Shown here: piece by piece, positions 2,301-56,730 of the stretch
Layout: each line of letters opens with the position of its first letter
How positions within the stretch are numbered: the first letter of the stretch is position 1
From: a bacterium
GTDB taxonomy: Bacteria; Bacillota_I; Bacilli_A; RF39; UBA660
Direction of reading: 5' to 3'
NCBI GenBank assembly: GCA_029100545.1
Contig: JAQXPH010000012.1
Location: 2,732-66,731 of the forward strand
Length of the DNA stretch: 64,000 bases
Notes under the pieces: model-generated
Seen by the model: the letters and a program-made list of their open reading frames with translations, nothing else
What the model was told of the DNA's origin: nothing
Database searches by the model: none
Translations under genes and position numbers: made by a program

Positions 2301-3212
2301 TTATATTATACTAGTAATATTTACCCCTTGATAATAATATTTCAATATTTGTTCATAATTATAGCCTTTCTTTGCAAGATAATTTGCACCATATTGGCTC
2401 ATACCAACTCCATGACCATAACCATAAGTTGTTATATATATGTTATCTGATATTTCTAATATAAAATCAGTTGATCTTAAATTTAAAATTTTTCTAAATT
2501 CTGTACCCTTAAAAGTTTTATTATTAATTGTAATTTCAATAACTCTATTGCTTTTTGATCGAATTACATTATTAATTATAATGTTTTCGCAATTTATATC
2601 TAATTTTTTACAAAATTCTTGTTTAGAAAATGTTACATTTTTTTCAAAATTTCTATTTTCAATTTCATCTAATGAAGAAACACTTTTTAAATAATCTTTT
2701 TTTTCATTAAAAACTAGCATACTATCTTCTGTATAACCATTACTCATAGCAAAATAATAAGATGAAATAATCTTTCCATTATAAGTAATTAATAAATTAT
2801 CAGTTTCTTCTACTGCTTTTTTTATTTTTAAATAATATTTATCATAGTCTTCATGCCAAATTTCTTTCATTTGATTTTCAGTATACATACATTGAGTTGT
2901 TGTATCTGTAGTAATATCTTTTCCAATGCTTTCTAAATAATATGCAAAAGTTCTTGATGCAATTGCCTGTGATTTCAATGCTTCTTCTTCAAATGACGCT
3001 GGCATTTCACACGCTAGAACTCCTATTAAATAATCATTAATATTAATATTTACATTTTTACTTTTTTCATTTCGTACACTAACTATTTCTTCCTTTTTGG
3101 CATTATAAAAATAGGAAGTCTTATTATCTAAACTTCCTACTAAATAAACTACAATTAATATCAATATAAAAATTATAATATTATTTTTCATTTTTTCCTT
3201 ATATGAGTTCAA
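2301..3212 (-). CDS. spoIID: Stage II sporulation protein D (lytic transglycosylase)
   Basis: SpoIID/LytB domain: CEMPASFEEEALKSQAIASRTFAY and GYGHGVGMSQYGANYLA, with an N-terminal TM. murA-spoIID neighbourhood as in B. subtilis. Confidence 0.85.
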   Translation of the reverse strand: MNSYKEKMKNNIIIFILILIVVYLVGSLDNKTSYFYNAKKEEIVSVRNEKSKNVNININDYLIGVLACEMPASFEEEALKSQAIASRTFAYYLESIGKDITTDTTTQCMYTENQMKEIWHEDYDKYYLKIKKAVEETDNLLITYNGKIISSYYFAMSNGYTEDSMLVFNEKKDYLKSVSSLDEIENRNFEKNVTFSKQEFCKKLDINCENIIINNVIRSKSNRVIEITINNKTFKGTEFRKILNLRSTDFILEISDNIYITTYGYGHGVGMSQYGANYLAKKGYNYEQILKYYYQGVNITSII

Positions 3213-4156: not shown

Positions 4157-4792
4157 TCAATCTTTTTTTATAATCATTTTACTAATTTTATAATATGCTT
4201 TACTATTTAAATAAAACTTTCCATTAATATTATAGTAATAATTCATATCTAATTTATTTAAATCTATATATTTAGTATTAAATTCTTTAGAATAACTTAA
4301 CAATTTTTTATTAATTAAATCATATTTATTAGAATCATTAAATATACTAAATAATATTATTTTTCCATCGTTAAGTTTTCTTATATTTTCTAATATTGTG
4401 TAAATGTTATTTAAAAAATCTATAATAATTTCATTAGATAGTTCTTTATAATTATTTAATTCAAAATTTCCTATATTTAAAATAATAATATTTGCATTTT
4501 TTATATAAAAATTTATTTTTGATTCATTATTTTTTATTAAATCTAAAACATTATATGTTGTTAAATCATCTTTACAATATTCTTTCAAAAATAATTTATT
4601 ATTATTTTCTTTTAAATACTTATTATAATTTTTATTATTAGAATATAATATTTTTCCAGTTGAAAGATAATCTCCAATTGAAACAATATATTCCTTTTTA
4701 TGATTTAAAAATTTATATATAATAAAGATACTAGTTATTGAAACAAAAATAATAATTAATAATTTATATCTTCTTTTAATCTTAAACATCAA
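4157..4792 (-). CDS. Membrane-anchored SGNH/GDSL-hydrolase-like protein, catalytic residues not evident
   Basis: N-terminal TM. Block I-like VSIGDYLSTG and block III-like LNIGNFELNN, but no clear DxxH. Overlaps the murA stop. Confidence 0.35.
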   Translation of the reverse strand: MMFKIKRRYKLLIIIFVSITSIFIIYKFLNHKKEYIVSIGDYLSTGKILYSNNKNYNKYLKENNNKLFLKEYCKDDLTTYNVLDLIKNNESKINFYIKNANIIILNIGNFELNNYKELSNEIIIDFLNNIYTILENIRKLNDGKIILFSIFNDSNKYDLINKKLLSYSKEFNTKYIDLNKLDMNYYYNINGKFYLNSKAYYKISKMIIKKD

Positions 4793-6196: not shown

Positions 6197-6682
6197 TTAT
6201 TTATCATCAATTTTTTGTACTGTTCCTTCAAATTTTGTTACTATTCCTTTTAAAACAGAATAATTTTTATTAATCATTTTATCATTTTTTTCATTTTCTT
6301 TTCGTAATTTATTTAATTTTTCTTTTTCTTTAGTTATTTTTGCAAGTTCATTTTTTTGATAATCATAAAACTCTTTTTGAGCTTGAGATAATCTATTTTT
6401 ATAATCTTCTAAATATTTTTCATATTCTTCAAGGGCTTTTTTCTTGTTTTCATAATCTTTTTTAAGTTTTTCTTTTTGTAAATTTATTTTTTCAATCTCA
6501 TTTTTTACATTAATTTTAAATTGTTTTTTATCATTTTCTAAACTTTCTTTTTTTTCATCAAGTTCTTTATTTAATTTAATGTAATATTCAATAAATTCAT
6601 TTGTATTATTTTCTTCTAGATTTTTTTTTAAAAGATCAGTATTAATGTTTAATTCATAATCTGTATTATCTTTATTATTCAT
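6197..6682 (-). CDS. K/E-rich coiled-coil protein (paralog 1)
   Basis: 161 aa, heptad-like K/E/L/N composition, no TM or signal peptide. C-terminus NYSVLKGIVTKFEG resembles the neighbour's NYSKFQEIVKKFIS. Confidence 0.6.
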   Translation of the reverse strand: MNNKDNTDYELNINTDLLKKNLEENNTNEFIEYYIKLNKELDEKKESLENDKKQFKINVKNEIEKINLQKEKLKKDYENKKKALEEYEKYLEDYKNRLSQAQKEFYDYQKNELAKITKEKEKLNKLRKENEKNDKMINKNYSVLKGIVTKFEGTVQKIDDK

Positions 6683-6683
6683 A

Positions 6684-7241
6684 CTATTCCTTATTATTTA
6701 TTTTAGATATAAATTTTTTTACTATTTCTTGAAATTTAGAATAATTATCTTCCAAATCTTTTTTATTCTTTTCAATTAAATTAATTTGTTCAATTCTATA
6801 TTTTTCAAATTCATTCTTATTTTTGTTTAATTCCTCTCTTTTAGAATCAATATCAGCATAAATTTTTGTTTTTTCTTGTTCAAAATCAATTTTTTCATCA
6901 TTTAGTTTTTGTCTTTCACTTTTCATTTCTTGTTCAAAACTAAATTTTTCATTTGCTAATTTTTTTTCTTCATCAGATAGTTTTAAGGATTTTTGATTCA
7001 ACTCTTCTTTTTGAACAACAAGAGAATTTACAGTACTATCAGCATTGGATACTTGCTTATTTAATTCTGCTAGTAATGATTCAAAATCCATATGTTTATC
7101 TTTTATATTTTTATTATCGCTTAAAAGGTCTTCACTTTCTTTAGACAATGAAAATATCTCTTTTGGAAATTCAAATTTTGGTTCCTCATTAAATAATTCA
7201 AATTCATTATTAATTTCAATATTATCTTTTTTCATAATCAA
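6684..7241 (-). CDS. K/E-rich coiled-coil protein (paralog 2)
   Basis: 185 aa, acidic N-terminus followed by a long coiled coil. A 1-nt gap to the downstream paralog implies co-translation. Confidence 0.6.
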   Translation of the reverse strand: MIMKKDNIEINNEFELFNEEPKFEFPKEIFSLSKESEDLLSDNKNIKDKHMDFESLLAELNKQVSNADSTVNSLVVQKEELNQKSLKLSDEEKKLANEKFSFEQEMKSERQKLNDEKIDFEQEKTKIYADIDSKREELNKNKNEFEKYRIEQINLIEKNKKDLEDNYSKFQEIVKKFISKINNKE

Positions 7242-7293: not shown

Positions 7294-7827
7294 TTATTTT
7301 ATTAGATGATTAAATGCTAATAATAAGATTATAACTATACCAAATACTTTTGCAATTATACCAAATTTTTTATATGTTAATTTACCTAATAATAAACCAA
7401 TATATGTTATAAAAAATGAACATATCATAAATATTAAGAAACCTAATAAAGGAATTGAAGTAATATTATTTATTCCAATTCCTATAGTAAAGCTATCCAA
7501 ACTTACACTAAAAGCAAAAAAAATCATATTTAGTAATGACATTTTAAAATTATTTTCTTTTTTATTAAATAAATCAACTATCATTTCAATACCTATAAAA
7601 ATAAATAAAGCAAATAATAATTTATTAGAGTCTATATAAACGATATTTCTTAATATATTTCCTAAAACACTTCCTAAAAAAGGCATAATAAAGTGAAAAA
7701 TACCTACTATAAGAGAATATAATAAATAGTCTTTTTTATCATTATAATTTGTTCCTATAGATAATGCCAGTGAAAAAGAATCCATCGAAAGCGAAATTCC
7801 TATTAATAATAAAATATAAATATTCAT
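7294..7827 (-). CDS. mntP: Manganese efflux pump MntP family (YwlD-like)
   Basis: Duplicated DUF204 motifs: SLSMDSFSLALSIG and SVSLDSFTIGIG. Six TM segments. Position matches B. subtilis ywlD. Confidence 0.75.
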   Translation of the reverse strand: MNIYILLLIGISLSMDSFSLALSIGTNYNDKKDYLLYSLIVGIFHFIMPFLGSVLGNILRNIVYIDSNKLLFALFIFIGIEMIVDLFNKKENNFKMSLLNMIFFAFSVSLDSFTIGIGINNITSIPLLGFLIFMICSFFITYIGLLLGKLTYKKFGIIAKVFGIVIILLLAFNHLIK

Positions 7828-7850: not shown

Positions 7851-8360
7851 CTATTTATGATATTTATTTAATATTTCATTAATATAGAATTTGTATTCAA
7901 TATTTGATAAATCATTTTCTTTTGCGTCAATTAAACATAAAGGTGGAAAAAGTACACACCACCAGTTATCTCCATATCCATTTCCTAAAGTTATGACAAG
8001 TGATTCATAATTTCCTTTTTTATATATAACATCCTTATACTCTTTTTTTGGGAAATAATTATAACCAAAATTTATAGTATAATTAATATTCATTTTATTT
8101 AATTCATCTTCTATATTATTTATATTATTATTAATACTTTTTCTTGCATCATATATATTTGATGATTCTAACATTATATTTGTAATTATAGGTATTATTT
8201 TTGTATTTGCTTCCCATTTATTTTTTTGATCTATTAATGAATTACTATTAGCAATTATTCTATATCTAATAGATTCGTTTGGAATAGTTATTTGCTTTTC
8301 TTTATTTATTGTAATTAAGAAAAAAGTAATAACAAATAATATAATTATAAATTTTTTCAT
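7851..8360 (-). CDS. spoIIR: Stage II sporulation protein R
   Basis: Signal/TM segment, IRYRIIANSNS (LRxHVxANSDS-like) and GDNWWCVLFPPLC signatures. Adjacent to prmC-prfA as in B. subtilis. Confidence 0.8.
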   Translation of the reverse strand: MKKFIIILFVITFFLITINKEKQITIPNESIRYRIIANSNSLIDQKNKWEANTKIIPIITNIMLESSNIYDARKSINNNINNIEDELNKMNINYTINFGYNYFPKKEYKDVIYKKGNYESLVITLGNGYGDNWWCVLFPPLCLIDAKENDLSNIEYKFYINEILNKYHK

Positions 8361-21276: not shown

Positions 21277-21611
21277 TATATACCTCCTAATAAATCAATT
21301 AATGATAATTCGTTTTGTTTAAAAGAATTTAATAAAAAACCCTTCCTTATAATTATAATATAATTATTATATTTTTTAAATAATAAATTATTTAAGTAAA
21401 CCATATTTCTCACTTGTCTCTTACATTTATTTCTTATTACAGCATTACCAATTTTCTTTGGAGCGGTAATACCAAATTTAGGAGTCATTTCGTTTTTTTG
21501 TTTATAAAATATAATAAATTCACTATTTGAAATTTTTTTCCCATTATTTATTATTTCATTAAATTTTGTATTATCCTTAACTATATATTCTTTATTCATA
21601 CATACCTTCAT
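21276..21611 (-). CDS. rnpA: Ribonuclease P protein component
   Basis: Basic ~110-aa protein (GNAVIRNKCKRQVRN) between rpmH and yidC. Alternative start at ATG 21599. Confidence 0.85.
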   Translation of the reverse strand: MKVCMNKEYIVKDNTKFNEIINNGKKISNSEFIIFYKQKNEMTPKFGITAPKKIGNAVIRNKCKRQVRNMVYLNNLLFKKYNNYIIIIRKGFLLNSFKQNELSLIDLLGGI

Positions 21612-21640
21612 TTAAAAAAAACCACAACAAAGTGGTCTTT
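21612..21640 (-). terminator. Hairpin plus T-run between rpmH and rnpA (partial terminator/attenuator)
   Basis: Minus strand reads ACCAC-TTTGTT-GTGGT followed by TTTTTTTT. Confidence 0.4.
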
Positions 21641-21762
21641 TATTTACTTAAAACTTTTCTACCTTTTCTACGACGATTTGATAATACTTTACCATTTTTT
21701 CTTGAAAAAAATCCATGAGTCTTTTTCATTTTTCTATTATTTGGTTGATATGTTCTTTTCAT
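21640..21762 (-). CDS. rpmH: 50S ribosomal protein L34
   Basis: Not in the ORF track (40 aa). Hand translation gives [40 protein letters not shown]. Sits upstream of rnpA. Confidence 0.9.
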
Positions 21763-21849
21763 ATTAATACACTTTCTCCTTTTCTATAGCGTAAATATTA
21801 TAATATTAAAAATAATATTTAGTCAAGTAAAAAGAAACAATAAAAATAA

Positions 21850-22013
21850 TTTTCAACATTTTATCAACAAATTACCAACAATAAATTAACATATTCAACA
21901 ACCAATTAACAACAAATAAAAAGTTATCAACATTTAAATTTTGTTGAAACTGTTGATAACTTGTGATATCCTAGTAAACAAAAGAAAAAAATGTTGATAA
22001 TTTGTGTGGAAAA
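21850..22013. promoter_or_regulatory. oriC part 1: DnaA-box cluster upstream of dnaA
   Basis: Exact TTATCAACA at 21861 and 21924. Complement TGTTGATAA at 21951 and 21992. Near-variants: TTTTCAACA 21850, TTACCAACA 21872, TATTCAACA 21892, GTTTCAACA (complement) 21943, TTTTCCACA (complement) 22005. Confidence 0.75.
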
Positions 22014-22095
22014 AATGTTATTAGTTTTTTTTACTTTAACTTTTATAAAAAATGAAGTAAAATAAGGTTGTAAAAAATTATATGTGGGGTAAGGT

Positions 22096-23463
22096 ATGAA
22101 AATAGAAGAACTATATAATACTTTTTTAGAAGAAATTGAACAAATTGTTAGCATTAATGTATATAATGTTTGGTTTTCTAAAATTAAGTTTTTATCAATA
22201 GATGATAATAATTTAGAAATACTGGTACCAATGAGTATTCATAAACAAATGCTTTCAGAAAACTATAAAGATATAATTGATAATATTCTTCTTAATATAA
22301 CGGGTAAAACTTATAATATTAAATACTTAACTGAGGAAGAATATAAAGAAATAGAAAATCAAAATAATGATAACTTACAAAATAATATAAATAAAGATTA
22401 TAATGTTGATGAAATGTGGGAAACAAATTTAAATCCCAAATTCACTTTTGAAAATTTTGTTGTTGGTGATTCAAATAGATTAGCCGTTGTTTCAGCTCAT
22501 GCTGTCGCAGAAAATCCAGGCTCAATTCATAATCCATTATTTTTATACGGAAAAAGTGGAATAGGTAAAACACATTTAATGCATGCAATAGGTAATTATA
22601 TTATAAATCATTCTAACAAAAAAGTTTTATATGTTACTAGTAATGATTTTGTTGAAGATTATACAGGAATAGCATATTTAGAAAAAGGCATTAATTCAAT
22701 AAATTATGCAAAAAACTTTAAAGATAAATATAAAAATGTTGATGTATTAATAATTGACGATATACAATTTTTAGTAGGAGCAGATAAATCTCAACAAGAA
22801 TTTTTTCATACATTTAATGCTTTATATCAGTCAAATAAACAAATTATAATTAGTTCCGATAGATCACCTGATGATTTAAAAAGAATAGAAGATAGATTAC
22901 GAAGTAGGTTTATGTGGGGATTACCTGTTGATATTTATCCACCTGATTTTGCTTTAAGATGTAAAATTATTCGTACAAAAATCAAAAATTCTTCGTTAGA
23001 AAATCGTTTAAATGATGAGGTTATTGAATACATTGCAAATTCGTGTCAAAATGATATTAGATTTATAGAAGGTACAATAAATAGATTAATGGCATACACA
23101 GCTATGATGGTACCTGAAAAAATTGATTTAAATTTTGCCATTGAAGCTTTAAAAGATTATTTAAGTGTTAATATATATGCTGATAATTCAATTAGTAAAA
23201 TTCAAAAAACTGTTGCAGACTATTTTGGAATAACAGTGAGTGACTTAAAAAGTAAGAAAAAGGTATCCAATATTAGTAAACCAAGACATATTGCAATTTA
23301 TTTATGTCGGGTTGAGACCGATGAAAAACTTGAAAGAATTGGATTAGAATTTGGAGGGAGGGATCATTCAACAATATCTTCGTCATATGATAAAATGGTA
23401 AATGATTTAAAAAAAGATGAAAAATTAAATACTATAATCAAAGAAATAAAAAACAAGTTATAA
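22096..23463 (+). CDS. dnaA: Chromosomal replication initiator protein DnaA
   Basis: 455 aa. AAA+ motif GKSGIGKTHL, box VII/sensor regions, and a domain IV HTH (IGLEFGGRDHSTI). Confidence 0.97.
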   Translation: MKIEELYNTFLEEIEQIVSINVYNVWFSKIKFLSIDDNNLEILVPMSIHKQMLSENYKDIIDNILLNITGKTYNIKYLTEEEYKEIENQNNDNLQNNINKDYNVDEMWETNLNPKFTFENFVVGDSNRLAVVSAHAVAENPGSIHNPLFLYGKSGIGKTHLMHAIGNYIINHSNKKVLYVTSNDFVEDYTGIAYLEKGINSINYAKNFKDKYKNVDVLIIDDIQFLVGADKSQQEFFHTFNALYQSNKQIIISSDRSPDDLKRIEDRLRSRFMWGLPVDIYPPDFALRCKIIRTKIKNSSLENRLNDEVIEYIANSCQNDIRFIEGTINRLMAYTAMMVPEKIDLNFAIEALKDYLSVNIYADNSISKIQKTVADYFGITVSDLKSKKKVSNISKPRHIAIYLCRVETDEKLERIGLEFGGRDHSTISSSYDKMVNDLKKDEKLNTIIKEIKNKL

Positions 23464-24723: not shown

Positions 24724-24730
24724 TTCGACA
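24724..24730 (+). promoter_or_regulatory. Exact Spo0A-box heptamer (TTCGACA) upstream of the comK-like gene
   Basis: Lies 46 bp upstream of the ATG at 24776 and just upstream of a TATGATAAT -10-like element. Confidence 0.3.
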
Positions 24731-24775: not shown

Positions 24776-25219
24776 ATGGACAAATATATAATTAATATAA
24801 ATACTTTGGTTTTAATGGATAATGGAGATAATTCTACAAAAATAATAGAAAAATATATTACTTTTAATATAAATAATAATATTTACAATATTATTGACGA
24901 AAGTTGTAAATTTTATGGTAGCTCATTTAAAGGGAGATGTAAAAGTACTGAATATTTATTAGGTATAAAATTAAAAGTACCAATTATAATAAGTGAAAGC
25001 AAAAAAATAATATTTTTTCCTACTATGTCAATTCAAAATAAAAATTGTGTTTGGTTTAATTTAAATTCCGTTGATAAATATTATACTATTGACAATTTAT
25101 TTTTAAATATTTCTTTAATAAATGATTTACAAATTAAAATTAAATGTTCAAATTATACATTTAATAATCAATATTTAAAAGCAATGCGATTAAAATCAAT
25201 TTTAAAAAAGAATTTGTAA
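24776..25219 (+). CDS. ComK-family transcription factor (short, 147 aa)
   Basis: By-eye alignment to B. subtilis ComK: KIIEK, IIDESCKFYGSSFKGR (vs IVDRSCRFFGSSYAGR), KVPIII...IIFFPTMS (vs KPPIMV...IFLFPTLS), C-x-W, and F-NQ...A--L. RBS GTGGGGGA. Confidence 0.7.
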   Translation: MDKYIININTLVLMDNGDNSTKIIEKYITFNINNNIYNIIDESCKFYGSSFKGRCKSTEYLLGIKLKVPIIISESKKIIFFPTMSIQNKNCVWFNLNSVDKYYTIDNLFLNISLINDLQIKIKCSNYTFNNQYLKAMRLKSILKKNL

Positions 25220-40516: not shown

Positions 40517-40555
40517 AAAATTTAAAATATAACACACTATTAAAGAGGTGTGTTT

Positions 40556-41044
40556 TTGAAAAGTACAGGTATTATAAGAAGAATAGATGATTTAGGTAGA
40601 ATTGTAATTCCAAAAGAAATAAGAAATCTTTTAAATATTCAAAATGATGATAATATTGAAATTTATATTGAAAATAAAAATATTATCTTATCTAAATATG
40701 ATAAGGCTATGGATTTAAAAAGTTATGCTGATAAATTAGTTGATATAATTACAGATAATTCTGATATTAGATTATTTATAACTAATAAAGAAATATTTAT
40801 TACTAAAGGTATATTAGAAAATAATAAAATAGATAATTCATTGCAAAATCTTATAATTGAACGAAAAAAATATGAAAGTAGTACTGAAGATATAATAAAT
40901 AATTTAAAAGGTTATTTTATTATTTATCCAATAATTATTGATAGTGATTTATTAGGCCTATTTATTTTTTTTAAAGAAAAAGAGTTTAATAATCAAGACA
41001 AAAATTTTGCAAATATTATCTTAAAAATTCTTGAAAATAGATAA
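40556..41044 (+). CDS. spoVT: Stage V sporulation protein T (AbrB-type swapped hairpin + GAF-like domain)
   Basis: A TTG start at 40556 behind AGAGGTG gives MKSTGIIRRIDDLGRIVIPKEIR, near-identical to SpoVT/AbrB N-termini. Follows mfd as in B. subtilis. Confidence 0.75.
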   Translation: MKSTGIIRRIDDLGRIVIPKEIRNLLNIQNDDNIEIYIENKNIILSKYDKAMDLKSYADKLVDIITDNSDIRLFITNKEIFITKGILENNKIDNSLQNLIIERKKYESSTEDIINNLKGYFIIYPIIIDSDLLGLFIFFKEKEFNNQDKNFANIILKILENR

Positions 41045-44044: not shown

Positions 44045-44114
44045 TTAGTTTCATATATTTTTTTTAAATATTTACATGATTTTTTATAAATGCTATAATT
44101 TATATGATGATATT

Positions 44115-44639
44115 ATGAAAAAGGTATTTAAAATAATAAAAATATTTATTTTAATTTTTGTAATTTGTATTTCTTTTACAAGTAGTTTTATTTATGAATC
44201 AAAAATATATAATAATAATCCTAATAAAAAAGTAGATGAAGTTGCAATGGCATTGAAAATAAATGAATTTGACTATGAATCTTTATATGGAGCAAAAGAT
44301 ACGTTAGTTGGGGATCTTACAGGTTATGCATATAATTGTCCATTATGTAGTGGTAAACTTGCTTGTTTAGGTAATTATAATATAACTAATGGTACTACAA
44401 CGTTTAATGACGAAACATATGGAAATGTGATGATAGTTGCATCAAGTACAAATTTAGCATGTGGAACTATAGTTAGGTTTTCTGTTGATAAATTATCAAG
44501 TGAGCCAATACTTGCAATAGTTCTTGATCGTGGGGTAAGAGGTAATAATTTAGATCTTCTTTCTATTAGTGAAGAATATGCAATAAATAATATTGGTAGA
44601 GTAGAAATAACATATGACGTATTAAGAAAAGGATGGTAA
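44115..44639 (+). CDS. 3D-domain (RlpA/MltA-like double-psi barrel) cell-wall protein, YabE-like
   Basis: Signal/TM segment plus the C-terminal GYAYNCPLCSG...GTIVRF...VLDRG pattern of 3D domains. Start moved to ATG 44115. Confidence 0.6.
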   Translation: MKKVFKIIKIFILIFVICISFTSSFIYESKIYNNNPNKKVDEVAMALKINEFDYESLYGAKDTLVGDLTGYAYNCPLCSGKLACLGNYNITNGTTTFNDETYGNVMIVASSTNLACGTIVRFSVDKLSSEPILAIVLDRGVRGNNLDLLSISEEYAINNIGRVEITYDVLRKGW

Positions 44640-47448: not shown

Positions 47449-48225
47449 TTGGTGATATTATTGAATATAGAAGTTGGTGATTATGTTACAAGAAAATCAT
47501 ATAATAATGATCTTATCTTTAAAGTGCTATCAATTTCCGAAGATAAAGTATATTTAAAAGGTGTATTTGATAGATTATATGCAGATAGTGATATTTTAGA
47601 CTTAGTAAAAGTAGATAAATGTGATGATAATTTTAACGTTGATTTAGATATAAATAATGATCGTAGTAATTATTTTTATTTACCAGGTAAAATTCTTCAT
47701 ATTGATGGTGATAGTGAATATTTAGAAAAATGTTTAAAATTTTATAAAAATTTAAACATTTATGCTATAGGAAAAAAAATAAATGAAGATAATATAGCAA
47801 GTCAATTATCAATATTATTAAAAGAGTTTAAACCAGATATTCTTGTTATTACTGGTCATGATGCATATTATTCAAAGAAGGGTAATAAAGATAATATAAA
47901 TAATTATAAAAATTCCAAAAATTTTGTTAAAGCAATTAGAGTAGCAAGAAATTATGAAAAAAATCATGAAAAACTTGTAATTATTGCAGGGGCCTGTCAA
48001 AGTGATTATGAAGCACTGATTAAAGCTGGAGCAAATTTTGCATCAAGTCCCAAAAGAGTTAACATTCATGCTTTAGATCCTGCTATAATAGCAAGTACAA
48101 TTGCACTTACAAAAACATCTGAAGAAATTAATGTTATTGATTTAATTAATAAAACAAAATATGGTTCCTCAGGCATAGGTGGAATTATAACTAATGGGCT
48201 TATGTATGTGGGGTATCCAAGATGA
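47449..48225 (+). CDS. yabG: Sporulation-specific protease YabG
   Basis: VGDYVTRKSY N-terminus, LHIDGD, ILVITGHDAY, ACQS. The rsmA-yabG-veg neighbourhood is retained. A TTG start at 47458 behind GGTGAT is likely the true start. Confidence 0.75.
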   Translation: MVILLNIEVGDYVTRKSYNNDLIFKVLSISEDKVYLKGVFDRLYADSDILDLVKVDKCDDNFNVDLDINNDRSNYFYLPGKILHIDGDSEYLEKCLKFYKNLNIYAIGKKINEDNIASQLSILLKEFKPDILVITGHDAYYSKKGNKDNINNYKNSKNFVKAIRVARNYEKNHEKLVIIAGACQSDYEALIKAGANFASSPKRVNIHALDPAIIASTIALTKTSEEINVIDLINKTKYGSSGIGGIITNGLMYVGYPR

Positions 48226-48437
48226 ACATTAATTTTATAAAAGAAAAGTTAAAAGATAACATAGGAAAAAAAGTAAGAGTAACTGTATATGGTCTAAGAA
48301 ATAAAATAAATTACTATGAAGGATATATATATAAACTTTATCCTAATATATTTACAATCAAAATTAATAATGAAGAAAAAAGTTTTGCTTATAGGGATAT
48401 AATTACAAAAGATATAAGTTTAAAATATTTTAATTAA
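48222..48437 (+). CDS. veg: Veg (DUF1021) protein
   Basis: 71 aa, IKEKLKDNIGKKVRV...YPNIFTIKI...SFAYRDIIT aligns with B. subtilis Veg. Confidence 0.75.
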   Translation: MNINFIKEKLKDNIGKKVRVTVYGLRNKINYYEGYIYKLYPNIFTIKINNEEKSFAYRDIITKDISLKYFN

Positions 48438-48518
48438 AAATGTTCAATTTTACTTGAAAATAATATAATAGTAAGGTAAAATAAAATTGTGAATAAGATA
48501 AAGGAGTAGTGATAAGAT

Positions 48519-48788
48519 ATGGAAATTACATCAGTAAAAGTTCACAAAACTGAAAGAGAAGGTTCTAGAATGAAAGGATATGCAACAGTAACATTAGATG
48601 ATTGCTTTGTTGTAAGAAATATCCGTATAATTGAAGGAGACGAAAAACTTTTTATTGCAATGCCAAGTAAAAAAGTAAGTGATGATCGTTATGAAGATAT
48701 AGCTCATCCAATTAATGCAGAAACAAGAAAAATGTTTGAAGATAAAATTCTAGAAGAATATAATAACCCTTCATCTGAAGAAGAATAA
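48519..48788 (+). CDS. spoVG: Septation protein SpoVG
   Basis: MEITSVKVHK...GYATVTLDDCFVVRNIRIIEG...FIAMPSKK. Confidence 0.95.
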   Translation: MEITSVKVHKTEREGSRMKGYATVTLDDCFVVRNIRIIEGDEKLFIAMPSKKVSDDRYEDIAHPINAETRKMFEDKILEEYNNPSSEEE

Positions 48789-48794
48789 TGTAAT

Positions 48795-48818
48795 AAAAAG
48801 CGAATATCGCTTTTTTTA
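48795..48818 (+). terminator. Intrinsic terminator after spoVG
   Basis: AAAAAGCGA-ATA-TCGCTTTTTTT. Confidence 0.6.
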
Positions 48819-48864
48819 TTTCTAAAAATATATGTAATTCATATATTTTAATGGAGGGTATTAT

Positions 48865-49146
48865 ATGAATGATAAAATTGTTGGTGTAACACATGAAGTA
48901 AAAATGATTGATAGAAATATTCTTTCTATTACTGGAATAAAAAGAATAATAAATTTTGATAGTAAAGAGTTTATATTAGAAAGTATTATGGGACCTATTC
49001 ATATAAAAGGAAATTCCATGGAATTACTATCTTTAGATACTGGAAGTGGTCTTATTAAAATTAAAGGTAAAATAGATAGTTATAATTATATTGATAAAAA
49101 TGTTAAAAATAAAGAAGAAAGTTTAATAAGCAAACTTTTTAAATGA
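48865..49146 (+). CDS. yabP: Sporulation protein YabP
   Basis: YabP family pattern (ILSITGIKRIINFDSKEFILES...IKGNSMEL). Coupled to yabQ. Confidence 0.8.
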   Translation: MNDKIVGVTHEVKMIDRNILSITGIKRIINFDSKEFILESIMGPIHIKGNSMELLSLDTGSGLIKIKGKIDSYNYIDKNVKNKEESLISKLFK

Positions 49147-49442
49147 CATCTTTTAAAATATTATTTATATTTTTATTAAATTTTTTATATGGAATATTAT
49201 TTTTGTTTTTATCATTATTAAATTACAAATTATTTTCAAGTGAAGACAAAATAATTAAATCAATTATATATATTTTATTTATTTTTGATAATGCAATTAT
49301 TTACTTAATTATATTATATAAAATTAATTATGGAGTATTTCATATTTATTATTTTATTTATTTTATAATTGGTTTAATTTTTGCATATTATATAAAAAAT
49401 AAAGTGTTAAGTTTATGTAAAAAAATAAAAAATAAAAAATGA
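49143..49442 (+). CDS. yabQ: Spore cortex biosynthesis protein YabQ-like membrane protein
   Basis: 99 aa, multi-TM. 4-nt overlap with yabP; yabP-yabQ-divIC order. Confidence 0.55.
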   Translation: MTSFKILFIFLLNFLYGILFLFLSLLNYKLFSSEDKIIKSIIYILFIFDNAIIYLIILYKINYGVFHIYYFIYFIIGLIFAYYIKNKVLSLCKKIKNKK

Positions 49443-50457: not shown

Positions 50458-52113
50458 ATGATAATGGACGAAATAATTATTTCATTAAATGATGGCACAA
50501 AAATTAATGCCATGAAAAATACTACATATTATGAATTGAGTAAAAAATGTAAAAATGCCGATAATATAATTGGTGTTTTAGTAAATAATAAAATAGCTTC
50601 ATTAAATGATAAAATTGTTAAAAATGAAAATGTTTCTTTTATAGATATTACAAATTCACTTGGTAATAGAATATATGTTGCTGGTCTTAAAATGGCTTTT
50701 GAATGTGCTGTATATAAAACTTTTCCTCAAGTTAAGTTAAGTTATGCATATAGTGTTCCAAAAGGTATTATAGCATATTTAAATTATGATAAATTACTTC
50801 TTAATGAAGATATTGATTTAATACGAAAAAAACTAAAAGACATAATTAATCAAAATTTGAAATTTCAAAAATTAATTATCAAAAATTCAGATGCAATTAG
50901 TTATTATGAAGATGTTGGTAACTTAGTAAAAGCATGTAATATAAAAAATATAGTTGATCCAACAGTAGTTTTATACCAACTTGACGATTTAATTAATTAT
51001 TATTATTCTGAAATGCCATATTCTACTGGATCTTTAACAAAGTATGATATTAAATATTTAGGAAAAAATATGGTTGTTATTATATATCCTGAAGAAAATT
51101 CTAGTGGAAATGTCCCAGAATATATTAATTATAAAGGAATAATAGATTCATATGTAAATAGTCAAAAGTGGCTTGACATAATGAAAGTTCCATATATTAA
51201 AGATGTAAATAATGAAATAAGTAATGGTAAAATAGCAGATTTTATAAAATCATGTGAATTAAATTTTAATATTGAGATTAATGAAACTGCTAAAGAGATA
51301 TCTAAAAACTCTAATATTAAATGTGTTTTAATATCTGGCCCATCTTCAAGTGGTAAAACGACAATTACTAAAAGATTAGCATCATATTTTAAAATATATG
51401 GATTAGATCCAATAGTAATATCTATAGATGATTATTATCATGAAAGAGTTGATAGCCCTAAAGATGAAAATGGAGAATATGATTTTGAATGTTTAGAGGC
51501 AACAGATATAAATTATTTAACAAATGATATAGTTAAATTATTTAATGGCGAATTAATTACATTACCTAAATTTAATTTTGTTACAGGAACTAAAGAATTA
51601 TCTTCGAAAAAGATTCAAATTAAAGATAATAGTATAATTTTATTTGAAGGATTACATGCTATAAATGATAAACTATTATCTTTTATACCAAAGGAAATGA
51701 AATATAAAATTTATGTTAGTCCTTTTATACCAATAAATATAGACCAACAAAATTATATTTCAAGTAGTGATTTAAGATTACTTCGAAGAATAGTTAGAGA
51801 TTTTAGAACAAGAGGATATGACGTTGGTTCAACAATAAAAAATGCAACAAAGGTTAAACGTGGGGAAGATAAATATATAATTCCTTTAATACCTACAGCA
51901 GATAAAATAATTAATACTTCTTTATCATACGAAGTAGGTGTTTTAAAGGTATACATTGAACCATTATTATATTCAGTTCCGATTAGTTCACCTTATTATG
52001 GCGAAGCAAGAAGATTTTTAAGTTTTTTAAAACAGTTTTATACAATTAGTAGTGAGTATATTCCAAAAGACTCAATATTAAGAGAATTTATAGGAGGAAA
52101 TGAAGATGATTAA
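50458..52113 (+). CDS. Uridine-kinase-family P-loop protein with an N-terminal TGS/ThrRS-like domain
   Basis: P-loop ISGPSSSGKTT, DDYY, FEGLHA (PRK/udk fold), preceded by a ~270-aa TGS plus ThrRS second-additional-domain-like region. Confidence 0.6.
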   Translation: MIMDEIIISLNDGTKINAMKNTTYYELSKKCKNADNIIGVLVNNKIASLNDKIVKNENVSFIDITNSLGNRIYVAGLKMAFECAVYKTFPQVKLSYAYSVPKGIIAYLNYDKLLLNEDIDLIRKKLKDIINQNLKFQKLIIKNSDAISYYEDVGNLVKACNIKNIVDPTVVLYQLDDLINYYYSEMPYSTGSLTKYDIKYLGKNMVVIIYPEENSSGNVPEYINYKGIIDSYVNSQKWLDIMKVPYIKDVNNEISNGKIADFIKSCELNFNIEINETAKEISKNSNIKCVLISGPSSSGKTTITKRLASYFKIYGLDPIVISIDDYYHERVDSPKDENGEYDFECLEATDINYLTNDIVKLFNGELITLPKFNFVTGTKELSSKKIQIKDNSIILFEGLHAINDKLLSFIPKEMKYKIYVSPFIPINIDQQNYISSSDLRLLRRIVRDFRTRGYDVGSTIKNATKVKRGEDKYIIPLIPTADKIINTSLSYEVGVLKVYIEPLLYSVPISSPYYGEARRFLSFLKQFYTISSEYIPKDSILREFIGGNEDD

Positions 52114-53125
52114 AGTAGCAATAAATGGATTTGGAAGAATAGGAAGACTTGCTTTTAGGCAAATGATAACTTCTACAGATTATGATATAGTAGCTATTAA
52201 TAATAAGGATTTAACTGCTGATGAAGCAGCGTATTTAATCAAATATGATACTGTACATAATACATTTCATGAAAATGAAATTACTTTTGATGGTAATGAA
52301 CTTGTTATAGCTGGTGTTAAAAGAGTAAAATTATTTTCTGAACTTGATCCTACTAAACTTCCTTGGAAAGAATTAGAAGTAGATTTAGTTTTAGAATGTA
52401 CTGGTGCTTTTACAAATTATGAAGGAGCTTACAAACATATTTTAGCAGGTGCTAAAAAAGTTTTAATTTCTGCTCCTGGAAAAGATGAAATGCCAACAAT
52501 AGTAAGTGGCGTAAATGAAAACATTTTAAAACCTACTGATATTATTGTAAGTGCGGCCAGTTGTACAACTAATTGTTTAGCGCCTTTATTAAAGATTATT
52601 GAAGATAATTTTGGAATTGAAAAAGGCTTTATGAGTACAATACATGCCTTAACGGCAGATCAAAATAGTTTAGATAATTTTCATAAGAAAGGTATTAATT
52701 CACGCAGAGGCAGAGCAAGTATTCAAAATATTGTACCTACATCAACAGGTGCTGCAAAAGCAATTGGTCTTGTTATTCCATCTTTAAATGGTAAAATGGA
52801 TGGCATAGCATATAGAGTTCCATGCATCGATGGTTCTATGATAGATGTTACGTTGGAATTAAAAAGAAATACTTCAAAAGAAGAGATTAATGAAGTTATC
52901 AAAAAAAATCAAAGTTCTGCATTAATATATACTGAAGCACCATTGGTATCAAGTGATGTAATTGGAAAAAAATGTGGTTGTTTATTTGATAGTTTATTAA
53001 CAAATGTTATTGAAGTAGATGGAAAACAACTTGTTAAACTTACTGCTTGGTATGATAATGAATATGGATATACTGCTCAAATGTTAAGAACTGCTGTTAA
53101 TATGTTTAAGGGTGTTGATAAATGA
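52106..53125 (+). CDS. gap: Glyceraldehyde-3-phosphate dehydrogenase
   Basis: INGFGRIGR, active site ASCTTNCLAP, WYDNEYGY. Start ATG 52106 is better spaced from GGAGGA than 52100. Confidence 0.95.
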   Translation: MIKVAINGFGRIGRLAFRQMITSTDYDIVAINNKDLTADEAAYLIKYDTVHNTFHENEITFDGNELVIAGVKRVKLFSELDPTKLPWKELEVDLVLECTGAFTNYEGAYKHILAGAKKVLISAPGKDEMPTIVSGVNENILKPTDIIVSAASCTTNCLAPLLKIIEDNFGIEKGFMSTIHALTADQNSLDNFHKKGINSRRGRASIQNIVPTSTGAAKAIGLVIPSLNGKMDGIAYRVPCIDGSMIDVTLELKRNTSKEEINEVIKKNQSSALIYTEAPLVSSDVIGKKCGCLFDSLLTNVIEVDGKQLVKLTAWYDNEYGYTAQMLRTAVNMFKGVDK

Positions 53126-54252
53126 AATTTATAGATGAAGTTGAAATAAAAGATAAAAAGATCATTTTAAGATGTGATTTTAATGTTCCTATTGAAAATG
53201 GAAATATTAAAGATAATACAAAAATAAAAAAAAGTATTAAAACAATTAATTATTTATTAGAAAATAATAATGCAATTATTTTATTAAGCCATCTAGGTAG
53301 AGTTAAAACGAGAGAAGATAAAATTAATAATACATTATTACCAGTTGCAAAAGAACTAAGTAAATTTCTTAATAAAGAAGTAACATTTATTAATGAACCA
53401 GTTGGTATGAAAGTTTTAAATGCAGTAAAAAATTTGAACTATGGTGAAATTATTTTGCTAGAAAATACTCGTTTTTGTGATTATCCTGAAAAACTTGAAA
53501 GTCATAATGATTTGAATTTGGCAAAATATTGGTCAGTTTTAGCGGATATTTTTGTTGTTGATGCTTTTGCTACATTACATAGAAACCATTCTTCAGTTGC
53601 AGGAATATCAAAATATTTACCAACATATTATGGATTACTCGTTAAAGAAGAAATTATAAATTTAAATCCTCTTGTTGAAAATATTCAAAGACCTTTTACT
53701 GTATTTATGGGGGGAGCTAAAGTTGATGATAAATTAATATATATTAAAAATTTATTAAAAAAATGCGATTACCTTCTTATTGGAGGTGGTATTGCAAATT
53801 CATTTTTATTTGCATGTGGATTTGATGTGATGGATAGTTTGTGTACCACAGATGAAATTACGATTTCAGAAATAAAAGAATTAATTAAAGAGTATAAAGA
53901 AAAAATAATATTACCTATTGATTTTGTAATTGAGGATAATAAAATATTAGATTTAAATACTAAATCAGTTAATAAATACATTAGTTACTTTCAAAAGAGT
54001 AAAACAATTTTTATTAATGGTACATGTGGTGTATTTGAAAATAAAAGATATGCAAATGGTACTATTAAATTATTTCAATCTTTAAGAGACATTGATGCAT
54101 ACAAAGTTGCTGGAGGAGGAGATACTCTTAATGCAATTCATATGTATAATTTGACAAATTATTTTTCTTTTTTATCAAGTGGTGGTGGAGCGTCATTAGA
54201 ATATATTAGTAGTGATCATTTAAAAGCAATAGATTATATTGAAAAAGTATAA
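53122..54252 (+). CDS. pgk: Phosphoglycerate kinase
   Basis: RCDFNVP, SHLGR, GGAKV.DK, GGGDT, GGGASLE. Confidence 0.95.
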   Translation: MKFIDEVEIKDKKIILRCDFNVPIENGNIKDNTKIKKSIKTINYLLENNNAIILLSHLGRVKTREDKINNTLLPVAKELSKFLNKEVTFINEPVGMKVLNAVKNLNYGEIILLENTRFCDYPEKLESHNDLNLAKYWSVLADIFVVDAFATLHRNHSSVAGISKYLPTYYGLLVKEEIINLNPLVENIQRPFTVFMGGAKVDDKLIYIKNLLKKCDYLLIGGGIANSFLFACGFDVMDSLCTTDEITISEIKELIKEYKEKIILPIDFVIEDNKILDLNTKSVNKYISYFQKSKTIFINGTCGVFENKRYANGTIKLFQSLRDIDAYKVAGGGDTLNAIHMYNLTNYFSFLSSGGGASLEYISSDHLKAIDYIEKV

Positions 54253-54266
54253 TTTATTGCTTTTTT
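54224..54266 (+). terminator. Long hairpin terminator overlapping the pgk 3' end
   Basis: AAGCAATAGATTATA-loop-TATAATTTATTGCTT (one G-T pair) followed by TTTT. Confidence 0.5.
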
Positions 54267-54272
54267 ACAATT

Positions 54273-54279
54273 TTCGACA
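54273..54279 (+). promoter_or_regulatory. Exact Spo0A-box heptamer (TTCGACA) upstream of the spo0A promoter
   Basis: Complement of TGTCGAA, about 40 bp upstream of the -35 element. Confidence 0.4.
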
Positions 54280-54319
54280 AAAATTTACGTAAATTTTCAA
54301 TAATTTACAAAAAAAATTC

Positions 54320-54348
54320 TTGCATTTTGTTAAAAAATAGGGTATTAT
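54320..54348 (+). promoter_or_regulatory. SigA-type promoter of spo0A
   Basis: TTGCAT (54320-54325), 17-nt spacer, TATTAT (54343-54348). Confidence 0.5.
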
Positions 54349-54387
54349 CTAATTGCGTGTTGGCTGTATATTTAGAAAGAGGAGATT

Positions 54388-55140
54388 ATGAATACTAGCA
54401 TCAGAGCTATAGTAGTAGATGACAATACTGTGGCAGTAAACAACTTAAGAAAATATTTTAATCAAAATGATCGAATAAAGATTGTCGCATCTTTTTCTAA
54501 TGGAGAAGAAGCATTAGAATATTTGATTAACAATAATGGCGAAATTGATTTAGTAATATTGGAATTGCTAATCCCAAGACTTGACGGAGCTACTTTACTC
54601 GAGGAAATAAAAAGTAGAAAATTGACTCCAAAAATTATAGTTACATCTGGATATAAAGATAATAATATAATTAACGACTGTGCATTCTACAATGTATGTT
54701 ATTATTTAATAAAACCATTTAGTATATTATCTTTAGAAAAAAGAATTAATGAAGTATTTGAATCCAAAAATTTATCTTTTAGCAAAAATAATAGTTTAGA
54801 TCTTGAAATAAGTCAATTACTTCATAATTTGGGTATTCCGTCACATATAAGAGGATATAAATATATTAGGGATGGTATTTTAATAATTTATAATAACGAA
54901 TCGGTTTCACTTGTTACTAAAGAAATATATCCACAAATTGCATTAAAATACGAAACTACGCCATCAAGAGTCGAAAGGGCAATAAGGCATGCAATTGAAG
55001 TTAGTTGGATCAGGGGGGACATTAATTTAATGGAAGATTTATTCGGATTTAGTGTCAGCTGTGAAAAATCTAAACCAACTAATTCTGAGTTTTTAACTAC
55101 AATTGCAGATCGTATTAAACTAGACAGTAAAGCTTTTTAG
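54388..55140 (+). CDS. spo0A: Sporulation master regulator Spo0A (atypical receiver: Glu at the phospho-acceptor position)
   Basis: Receiver domain plus a Spo0A-specific C-terminal domain (GIPSHIRGYKYIRDGI, SRVERAIRHAIEVSWIRG, KPTNSEF). Codon 59 is GAA (LVILELLIPRLDG vs B. subtilis LVLDIIMPHLDG). Confidence 0.95.
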   Translation: MNTSIRAIVVDDNTVAVNNLRKYFNQNDRIKIVASFSNGEEALEYLINNNGEIDLVILELLIPRLDGATLLEEIKSRKLTPKIIVTSGYKDNNIINDCAFYNVCYYLIKPFSILSLEKRINEVFESKNLSFSKNNSLDLEISQLLHNLGIPSHIRGYKYIRDGILIIYNNESVSLVTKEIYPQIALKYETTPSRVERAIRHAIEVSWIRGDINLMEDLFGFSVSCEKSKPTNSEFLTTIADRIKLDSKAF

Positions 55141-55167
55141 AAAACTACTTTTAAAGTAGTTTTTTTA
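55141..55167 (+). terminator. Intrinsic terminator after spo0A
   Basis: AAAACTACTTT-TAAAGTAGTTTTTTT. Confidence 0.6.
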
Positions 55168-55227
55168 TGACTAAATTTGCACTTCTTTACTTATTATGTT
55201 ATTATTTTTATGGAGATTTATAATTAT

Positions 55228-56730
55228 ATGAAAAAAGTATTAACAATAATTTTAGATGGTTTTGGATTTAGACAAGAAGAAACAGGAAATGCTATAAAGA
55301 AAGCTAATATGGTAAATTTTAATAAATTTTATAATGAAAATCCTCATACAACACTTCATGCTTCTGGACATTATGTTGGCCTTAATGATGGTCAATTTGG
55401 TAATAGTGAAATTGGCCATATGACTATAGGTGCTGGGAGATTAATAAAATCAAGAGAAGTTCTTGTTGATGAATTTTTAGAAAATATTAACAATAATGAA
55501 TCAGAAATAATTCAAAAATTAAAATTATCAGTAGAAAAAAATATACATATTATGGGTTTATGTAGTGATGGAAATGTTCATGCTGGAATTGATGATTTTA
55601 TTAAAATGTACGAGTTTTTAATTAAAAATGGTTGTAAAAATATATATTTTCATTTAATTACAGATGGTAGAGATACTGAAATTAATTCTGCATATAAATA
55701 TATAAAAAATATTGAGGATTTAATTAATAAAAATAAAGTTGGAACTATTGCAACTATATGTGGAAGATATTATGCAATGGATAGAGATGAGAATTATGAT
55801 AGAACTTTAGTATATTATGATTTAATAACAAAAGGTAAAGGAATTAATATATTAAATATTCAAAATGCTATTAATGCTTATTATAATAAAAATGTTTATG
55901 ATGAATTTTTGAAACCAATGGTAGTAGATGAAAAAGGATTAATTAAAGATGATGATGTACTTTTATGGATGAATTATAGAACTGATAGAAGTAAGCAAAT
56001 ATTGCTTTCATTATCTAGTCCAAAATTTGATAAATTTAATACTTTAAATCTTAATAAATTAGAAATTTATACTTTTTTTAATCATGATAAACAAATTAAT
56101 GCAAATATTTTAATTGAAGAACCGAAAATAGATAATAGTTTGGGATTATATTTAGCTAAACTTGGCATAAAACAAGCAAGAATAGCTGAAAGTGAAAAAT
56201 ATCCTCATGTAACATATTTTTTTGATGAAGGAATAGATGGTAAGATTGCAAATGTTGATAAATTTCATATACCTTCACCGGAAGTAGCTACATACGATTT
56301 AAAACCTGAAATGAGTATTGTTGCTGTTACAAAAAAAATTATAACTTGTATGGAACAAGATTATGATTTTATACTTGCTAATTTTGCAAATCCAGATATG
56401 GTTGGACATACAGGAAATTTTGATGCTACTGTTAATGCTTGTATGGCAATTGATATATGTCTTGCAAAAATATTTGAATATGCGGAAAATAATTTTTATA
56501 AAGTTATTATTTTAGCTGATCATGGCAATGCAGATACTATGTTAAATGAAGACGGTAGTGTTTGCACTACTCATAGTATGAGTGATGTTCCATTTGTAAT
56601 AAATGATAGTAAAATATCTTTAAAAGATGGAGGAGACTTAACAAATGTTGCACCAACAATATTAGATTATATGGATATTTCTATTCCAGAAGAAATGACT
56701 AGTGAATCATTAATTATTGAGGAAGCATAA
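55228..56730 (+). CDS. gpmI: 2,3-bisphosphoglycerate-independent phosphoglycerate mutase
   Basis: MKKVLTIILDGFG, catalytic Ser in GNSEIGHMT, ADHGNAD. Start moved to ATG 55228. Confidence 0.95.
   Translation: MKKVLTIILDGFGFRQEETGNAIKKANMVNFNKFYNENPHTTLHASGHYVGLNDGQFGNSEIGHMTIGAGRLIKSREVLVDEFLENINNNESEIIQKLKLSVEKNIHIMGLCSDGNVHAGIDDFIKMYEFLIKNGCKNIYFHLITDGRDTEINSAYKYIKNIEDLINKNKVGTIATICGRYYAMDRDENYDRTLVYYDLITKGKGINILNIQNAINAYYNKNVYDEFLKPMVVDEKGLIKDDDVLLWMNYRTDRSKQILLSLSSPKFDKFNTLNLNKLEIYTFFNHDKQINANILIEEPKIDNSLGLYLAKLGIKQARIAESEKYPHVTYFFDEGIDGKIANVDKFHIPSPEVATYDLKPEMSIVAVTKKIITCMEQDYDFILANFANPDMVGHTGNFDATVNACMAIDICLAKIFEYAENNFYKVIILADHGNADTMLNEDGSVCTTHSMSDVPFVINDSKISLKDGGDLTNVAPTILDYMDISIPEEMTSESLIIEEA

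Follow-up and report, generated by a model that had tools for sequence, protein, structure and literature searches.

The 64,000-nucleotide (nt) stretch of DNA analysed here (64 kb of contig JAQXPH010000012.1, referred to below as the window) carries a spo0A gene whose protein has glutamate (Glu) instead of aspartate (Asp) at the phospho-acceptor position of its receiver domain. To our knowledge, endospore formation is taken to be triggered in all cases by the phosphorylation of one conserved Asp in Spo0A, and the models of the phosphorelay, of orphan kinases, and of the Spo0E and Rap phosphatases all act at that residue. From the comparison with its relatives we conclude with high confidence that the window protein represents a functional, selected, and aspartate-less Spo0A ortholog, carried by uncultured gut Bacilli that form a clade and have a low content of guanine plus cytosine (GC, 22-29%). 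In this Glu lineage, the Spo0A switch is probably not operated by phosphorylation, and the kinase may have been lost as well.

The window protein scores 229 bits against TIGR02875, the NCBIfam equivalog model of Spo0A (cut-off of 200 bits), and covers positions 2-261 of the 262 positions of that profile. Pfam recognizes a receiver (Response_reg, PF00072, residues 8-120, 1.6e-19) followed by the DNA-binding domain of Spo0A (Spo0A_C, PF08769, residues 141-243, 1.1e-36). The C-terminal domain aligns with solved Spo0A structures (1lq1 with E = 3e-38 and 1fc3 with E = 7e-38), in which the DNA-recognition segment SRVERAIRHAIEV is conserved, and most positions of this segment are invariant over 56 homologs (alignment A1). 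The high conservation that an earlier note on this DNA had ascribed to the DNA-recognition region is borne out by these alignments. Architecture, score, DNA-binding domain, and a 0A box of its own all point to a Spo0A, from which the acceptor Asp is missing.

The surroundings of residue 59, as read from the window DNA, are ...IDLVILELLIPRLDG... / ...GEIDLVILELLIPRLDGATLLEE.... When the protein was aligned by HMMER to solved Spo0A receivers (1dz3/1qmp and 9phz), 'dlvilelliprldg' fell over 'd+++l++++p+ldg', which puts E59 on the acceptor Asp. An AlphaFold2 model (predicted local distance difference test score of 84.6) shows the (beta-alpha)5 fold, in which beta3 (residues 55-59) ends C-terminally with E59 and beta4 ends with S87; D11 and D12 come after beta1, as does K109 after beta5. 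Alignment and model thus agree with the earlier claim that E59 is the equivalent of the acceptor D56 of Bacillus subtilis. A different Asp that might occupy the acceptor site, D54, had been considered as well; its counterpart in B. subtilis is D51, where beta3 begins, and it was rejected as an alternative acceptor.

The remainder of the active-site pocket is retained. As the earlier note had read from the sequence, the acidic pair and the Lys are in place, according to both the alignment and a table of residues per column: D11, D12, S87, K109, and Y106 are present in every member of clade 1 (the larger Glu-type clade, which includes the window), K109 is invariant in alignment A1, and the acidic pair is DD in all clade-1 members and ED in three members of a second Glu-type clade (clade 2). 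The reading of the motif 'IVTSGY' as the retained Thr needs correction by one residue. The hydroxyl position is kept, but the alignment with 1dz3 shows that the residue occupying it is S87 (aligned to B. subtilis T86 and more than 90% conserved in alignment A1) and not T86 of the window protein. By definition, a PF00072 receiver fold that lacks the acceptor Asp is a pseudo-receiver (aspartate-less receiver; 10.1101/2025.06.23.661182), and the window protein is therefore to be classed as the pseudo-receiver version of Spo0A.

Important to note here is that the Glu codon is shared by many genomes. A 250-aa protein identical to that of the window is encoded on contigs from four independent metagenome samples, whose genes differ from the window by 0, 3, 5, and 6 nt; all of these differences are synonymous and GAA is kept in four of four. 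Among the 120 nearest homologs in a collection of 5.8 billion proteins, the acceptor column holds Glu in 19 and Asp in 101 cases, and some of the Glu clusters have many members (e.g., 249 in P0070). Glu was also found in five GTDB species-representative metagenome-assembled genomes (MAGs) labelled 'Bacilli bacterium' (L005, L006, L007, L013, and L023, with 97% to 70% identity), four of which originate from the Hadza human gut, and in a deeper member with ~60% identity to the window protein (P0060/L030). The codon at position 59 is GAA in each of these genomes, compared to GAT or GAC in Asp-type relatives. With synonymous-only differences on four independent contigs and six further genomes that all carry GAA, Glu59 is neither a sequencing error nor a strain-specific mutation, both of which the earlier note had wanted excluded, and the question of whether Glu is lineage-wide is answered positively down to ~60% identity.

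Beyond this lineage, Spo0A sequences are numerous, with ~800 clusters scoring at E <= 1e-30. Of full-length sequences, 131 were aligned, namely 130 representatives of Spo0A-like clusters at 50% identity and the window protein. The acceptor residue is Asp in 104, Glu in 11 (10 besides the window protein), and Asn in seven of them, with a few others (Ser/Thr/Gly/Cys); ~20% of the aligned representatives (P0125-P0261) have no acceptor Asp. Nine Glu types from other lineages were scored with TIGR02875, of which seven lie above the cut-off (226-291 bits), including one that corresponds to the annotated Spo0A of Candidatus Scatomorpha stercorigallinarum (L029), and two below (164 and 192 bits). The locus of a Glu-type gene in a Clostridia MAG (Ca. 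Scatomorpha) was inspected and gave no information on paralogy. In most of these proteins from elsewhere the second acidic residue is gone as well, whereas the clade of the window has kept it. Spo0A forms without the Asp (Glu, Asn, and others) elsewhere in uncultured Firmicutes could represent a general evolutionary route.

Glu-type and Asp-type genomes alike carry spo0A within the common block yabG-veg-spoVG-yabP-yabQ-divIC-clpP(-)-PRK-gap-pgk-spo0A-gpmI-rpsJ.... Because this locus is shared by both types, the Asp-to-Glu substitution happened in place, in the Spo0A ortholog itself. In a neighbour-joining tree, the Glu types form three groups: the large clade 1, clade 2 (P0074, P0075, P0087, P0089, P0092, and P0094), and the singleton P0009. 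When the tree was bootstrapped with the acceptor column masked, clade 1 obtained 77% and clade 2 obtained 96%; clade 2 joined with its Asp-type sisters at 100%, compared to 0% for all Glu types together. Clade 2 shows the same pgk-spo0A-gpmI-rpsJ synteny in three assemblies and encodes its Glu by GAG, versus GAA in clade 1. Taken together, the bootstrap groupings (100% versus 0%) and the two different codons argue firmly for at least two independent origins of Glu. P0009, known from one 3-kb contig, would be a third. The glycolytic cluster gap-pgk-spo0A-gpmI is immediately followed by the operon of the S10 ribosomal protein (window positions 52100-56730; loci L005-L023, L030, and L031), and this position of spo0A, which does not adjoin spoIVB, is kept across the whole group of uncultured low-GC Bacilli comprising both Asp and Glu types.

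The Glu-type receiver is also under selection. For unsaturated pairs within the Glu clade, the ratio of nonsynonymous to synonymous substitution rates (dN/dS) is 0.06-0.11 in the receiver and 0-0.04 in the DNA-binding domain, which amounts to strong purifying selection; in more distant pairs (e.g., the window versus L006 and L023) synonymous sites are saturated. The mean pairwise identity of the receiver is 0.65 in the Glu clade and 0.61 in a comparable Asp-type set, which indicates that the Glu-clade receiver has not been relaxed. The C-terminal domain, on the other hand, is more diverged in the Glu clade (0.76 versus 0.86). In the Glu clade, the conservation of the active-site loops and the alpha1 helix matches or exceeds that of Asp-type proteins, and tests by dN/dS and pairwise identity showed no loosening of constraint in the receiver or in the alpha1 face used for docking. 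Leu at the position following the acceptor ('DLL'), T86, and I212 were considered as co-substitutions and rejected, as they are already present in Asp-type sisters of one or the other Glu clade. The Leu is found in the Asp-type sisters of each Glu origin and may, at most, have provided a permissive background.

The regulatory region of spo0A is conserved along with the protein. Every Glu-type genome examined has a 0A box located between -113 and -124, and so do most of the Asp-type relatives. Over 12 aligned loci the TCGACA core of this box does not vary, and some of these comparisons, such as the window against L006 and L023, are distant enough for synonymous sites to be saturated. In most of the Glu-type loci (16-21 kb) it is the sole perfect 0A box. 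The spo0A gene of B. subtilis is autoregulated, and since the box has been kept upstream of spo0A across the Glu types, autoregulation appears to be retained. The box lies ~41 nt upstream of a putative sigma-A type promoter (TTGCAT-17-TATTAT), whose blocks are conserved among Glu-type loci (alignment A2) and where a scan for consensus promoters gave no match. The 12-bp hairpin that follows the stop codon suggests that spo0A, between pgk and gpmI, is transcribed as a separate unit; a terminator scan that requires GC gave no match at this hairpin. The -35 element of Glu-type spo0A promoters is near-consensus (TTGCAT or TTGCTT), and the aligned position in Asp types reads ATAGAT or TAGATT (columns ~78-86 of alignment A2). 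This difference may reflect an altered control of spo0A transcription that coincided with the Asp-to-Glu change. The upstream regions of Asp-type spo0A genes contain additional GACA/TGTC repeats.

In the entire window there are three perfect 0A boxes, all of them intergenic. This number is not significantly enriched (three found versus 1.98 expected, with 33 of 100 shuffles reaching three), and what is informative is where the boxes lie and how well they are conserved, not the window-wide count. Besides the box of spo0A, one is found between dnaN and recF (24724-24730), 46 nt upstream of the start of a ComK-family gene (24776-25219, PF06338, 6.5e-35), which suggests that this competence-type regulator is directly controlled by Spo0A. 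The other (1032-1038) is located in the 366-nt intergenic region upstream of hpf, the gene for a ribosome hibernation factor (169-696, minus strand).

With regard to mechanism, a one-base change from GAT to GAA turned the acceptor Asp into Glu, which was then fixed. As the acceptor Asp is replaced, canonical His-to-Asp phosphotransfer would no longer be available to the Glu-type Spo0A. The protein remains a working transcription factor, with its DNA-binding domain, upstream 0A box, selected receiver, and pocket (D11/D12/S87/K109/Y106) conserved. In this pocket, the longer carboxylate of Glu would engage S87 and K109 as a partial phosphomimic and thereby bias the receiver to its active, dimerizing state. 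Sporulation entry would then be set by the amount of Spo0A produced from the autoregulated promoter inside the glycolytic gene cluster instead of by a kinase or phosphorelay, to which proteolysis or a binding partner possibly adds further control. We give an even chance to the proposal that S87 and K109 hold Glu as a built-in partial phosphomimic and that activity is set by the Spo0A level from the autoregulated promoter. Phosphomimicry, constitutive activity, control by abundance, and the loss of a cognate kinase are the parts of it that we infer. Glu is the commonest substitution in aspartate-less receivers (ALRs; PMC4395418), and it has been suggested in the receiver literature that the Thr/Ser and the Lys let Glu stabilize the active conformation.

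Several points weigh against this mechanism. In B. subtilis, the D56E substitution in Spo0A was by itself insufficient for constitutive activity, as a survey of ALRs reports from Green et al. 1991 (PMC4395418), and a simple phosphomimic would consequently require the sequence background of this lineage or a lower requirement for activity. Among the homologs compared, no compensatory substitution specific to Glu was found by column comparison. The fully kept pocket and alpha1 surface fit continued phospho-chemistry or a docking partner equally well. The evidence on kinases, Spo0F, Spo0B, Spo0E, and a second spo0A covers the 64-kb window and the ~20-kb flanks of relatives. Finally, it is from gene content that we infer that these uncultured organisms sporulate.

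It is unlikely that Spo0A is still switched by a covalent modification or by a kinase-like partner. Conceivable routes are acyl-phosphorylation or methylation of Glu59, phosphorylation of T86 or S87 (by a Hanks-type Ser/Thr kinase, for instance), or binding of the alpha1 face, free of phosphotransfer, by what was once a kinase or phosphotransferase. Such routes fit the conservation of the whole pocket (DD, S, and K) and of the alpha1 helix, which equals that of the Asp types. Glu is phosphorylated or methylated in other systems, yet no bacterial receiver is known to signal via glutamyl phosphate (PMC4395418). T86 is fixed in both Glu clades and rare (9%) in Asp types, which would agree with a role as modification site, but the Asp-type sisters of clade 2 have it too, and the Glu singleton P0009 lacks it.

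A kinase partner has likewise not come to light in the DNA at hand. According to the NCBIfam/Pfam annotation, the window has no gene for a histidine kinase, Spo0F, or Spo0B, its only HATPase_c match being GyrB, and no kinase gene was found in the syntenic flanks of the relatives. We know of no sporulation kinase in reduced-genome gut Bacilli. A survey that also takes in related uncultured orders reports that Erysipelotrichales, of which some do sporulate, lack the sensor kinase for sporulation of the Bacillus type (PMC10868615).

A further alternative is a decaying or co-opted regulator. The lineage would then be non-sporulating or not use Spo0A for sporulation, and Glu59 would lock the protein in an inactive or irrelevant state, in which it serves another role or heads for loss. 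Many Firmicutes that encode Spo0A are not known to sporulate (bioRxiv 10.1101/2022.02.25.481979), sporulation has been lost repeatedly in related orders of reduced Bacilli (PMC10868615), and several of the sporulation matches in the window fall below their NCBIfam cut-offs. We nonetheless regard decay or co-option as rather improbable. Both domains are under strong purifying selection, with a receiver that is not relaxed compared to Asp-type lineages, and the clade as a whole has conserved both its pocket residues and the 0A box upstream of spo0A. Moreover, spoIID, yabG, yabP, and the spoIIR-, spoIIQ-, and spoVT-like genes are intact open reading frames (ORFs) that are kept in Glu-type relatives, among which the yabG-veg-spoVG-yabP block recurs with 79-87% identity for yabG. 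The sub-cut-off scores of SpoIIQ, SpoIIR, and SpoVT point to a sporulation machinery that has diverged strongly from the Bacillus and Clostridium models.

It could also be argued that the Glu-type gene is an auxiliary paralog and that a canonical, Asp-type Spo0A encoded elsewhere in the genome runs sporulation. Some Clostridiales indeed have two to three spo0A paralogs, and the Glu- and Asn-type Spo0A-like proteins of other lineages often show a degenerate acidic pair, as would be expected of diverged copies. Here, however, the Glu-type gene occupies the exact locus of the Asp-type gene in sister genomes, which identifies it as the ortholog and not as an extra copy, and a scan of GTDB with query-specific peptide patterns returned one spo0A locus per Glu-type MAG. 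These genomes are furthermore very AT-rich and may also be small, and a small size would make paralogs less likely; we deem such a division of labour very improbable. An error in sequencing or assembly, or a private mutation of one strain whose true Spo0A has Asp, has practically no probability left even though GAT and GAA are one third-position base apart, given GAA on the four contigs with other synonymous differences and in L005, L006, L007, L013, L023, and L030 (97% to ~60% identity), and Glu in 19 of the 120 nearest homologs with clusters of up to 249 members.

The preferred reading of a natural, Glu-type Spo0A can be compared to several known systems. With canonical Spo0A of Bacillus, Geobacillus, and Clostridia, the window protein shares the two-domain architecture, a near-identical DNA-recognition region, the 0A box at its own promoter, and a genome with sporulation genes; it differs by the Glu that replaces the acceptor Asp throughout the clade, by Ser instead of Thr at the hydroxyl position, and by pgk and gpmI as neighbours instead of spoIVB. 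Engineered receivers such as NtrC D54E and B. subtilis Spo0A D56E carry this very substitution at the equivalent site and retain the Thr/Ser and the Lys. These are laboratory mutants, in contrast to the natural, fixed, and recurrent form described here. Natural Glu-type pseudo-receivers include Chlamydia ChxR, the plant pseudo-response regulators, and fungal Rim15p, which likewise combine the receiver fold with a Glu in place of the phosphorylatable Asp and for which regulation is likewise expected to occur via abundance, dimerization, or partners, but which differ in their output domains and biology. Only 29% of typical ALRs keep the second acidic residue (PMC4395418), whereas the window Spo0A keeps all four of the other active-site residues. 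The activity of Spo0A is also uncoupled from the phosphorelay, with dose governing the output, in bypass alleles such as Sad67. The latter, a phosphorelay-bypass allele of B. subtilis which Ireton et al. (1993) are said to have described, reportedly carries a deletion inside the receiver, unlike the window protein, whose receiver is complete and subject to purifying selection.

A full-text literature search returned no published description of a natural Glu-type or otherwise Asp-less Spo0A and, on D56E, nothing relevant other than the mention of Green et al. 1991 in PMC4395418. In the ALR survey, Spo0A is cited for nothing but the Asp-to-Glu mutant of B. subtilis and no natural Spo0A example is listed (PMC4395418), and a perspective on pseudo-receivers from 2025 makes no mention of Spo0A. 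We put forward tentatively, and with more doubt than conviction, that endospore-forming gut Bacilli have dispensed with phosphotransfer at least twice in favour of a hard-wired Glu phosphomimic, which would render sporulation entry concentration-set, kinase-free, and possibly coupled to metabolism. A natural, fixed, and recurrent Glu in the orthologous Spo0A of abundant gut bacteria with sporulation genes implies that the sporulation decision can be wired differently. This would come as a surprise to sporulation specialists and is directly testable, as the paired Asp- and Glu-type orthologs at one locus offer a natural experiment on what makes an Asp-to-Glu receiver active. The same pairing addresses how sporulation is controlled in reduced-genome gut Bacilli. 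It also calls for caution, because an automated annotation as 'Spo0A' is no proof of a canonical sporulation trigger.

Table 1. Coordinates of spo0A, its functional sites and flanking signals, and sporulation-related genes in the window
Feature	Position	Strand	Basis
spo0A coding sequence, 250 aa plus stop	54388..55140	+	ORF, Pfam, TIGR02875, 1lq1/1fc3 alignment
Receiver (REC) domain, residues 5-124, (beta-alpha)5 fold	54400..54759	+	PF00072, AlphaFold2 secondary structure
Spo0A_C DNA-binding domain, residues 141-243, including SRVERAIRHAIEV	54808..55116	+	PF08769, 1lq1/1fc3
Perfect 0A box TGTCGAA (TTCGACA on + strand), 115 nt upstream of the spo0A ATG	54273..54279	-	Motif scan
Putative sigma-A type promoter of spo0A: TTGCAT (54320-54325), 17-nt spacer, TATTAT (54343-54348)	54320..54348	+	Read from sequence
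12-bp AT-rich hairpin right after the spo0A stop, then U-rich sequence; possible terminator	55139..55165	+	Fold -9.5 kcal/mol, z = -3.4
Codon 59, GAA = Glu, phospho-acceptor position (B. subtilis D56)	54562..54564	+	Sequence, HMMER, AlphaFold2 model
D11-D12 acidic pair (GAT GAC), kept	54418..54423	+	Sequence, column table
T86, residue preceding S87	54643-54645	+	'IVTSGY' position
S87 (TCT), conserved Thr/Ser receiver position	54646..54648	+	1dz3 alignment, column table
K109 (AAA), conserved active-site Lys, followed by P110	54712..54714	+	Invariant in alignment A1
spoIIQ-like, engulfment gene	1637-2266	-	SpoIIQ model, 118 bits vs cut-off 250 (below)
spoIID, engulfment gene	2301-3212	-	TIGR02870, 264 bits vs cut-off 235 (above)
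spoIIR-like	7851..8360	-	TIGR02837, 115 bits vs cut-off 152; best and only match
spoVT-like AbrB-family regulator, downstream of mfd	40550..41044	+	TIGR02851, 74 bits vs cut-off 236; AbrB domain
yabG (Peptidase_U57), veg, spoVG, yabP, yabQ-like	47449..49442	+	Pfam families on identical contig L001

In addition to the genes listed in Table 1, ricT/yaaT belongs to the sporulation-related genes of the window. Five ORFs of 161-211 aa (1063-1650, 4157-4792, 6197-7241, and 44076-44639) have no credible Pfam or NCBIfam match, with only 6197-6682 giving a weak, sub-threshold Pfam match. Some of them are found among sporulation genes, beside the spoIIQ-like gene and spoIID and near a weak YtaF-like match (7294-7827), and could encode divergent sporulation proteins.

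Directly upstream of gap, and overlapping it, is the gene of a 551-aa protein (50458-52113) with a PRK/uridine-kinase domain in its C-terminal half only (residues 292-486). This protein is kept in all relatives, and its N-terminal half has no family match. In Bacillus, the position upstream of gap is taken by cggR.

The GC content along the window is 21-30%. The sign of the GC skew switches near 22 kb (21600-22100), between rnpA-yidC-jag-mnmE-mnmG-rsmG-noc/parB on the minus strand and dnaA-dnaN-recF-gyrB-gyrA on the plus strand, which places the chromosomal replication origin, as judged from skew and gene order, within the window.

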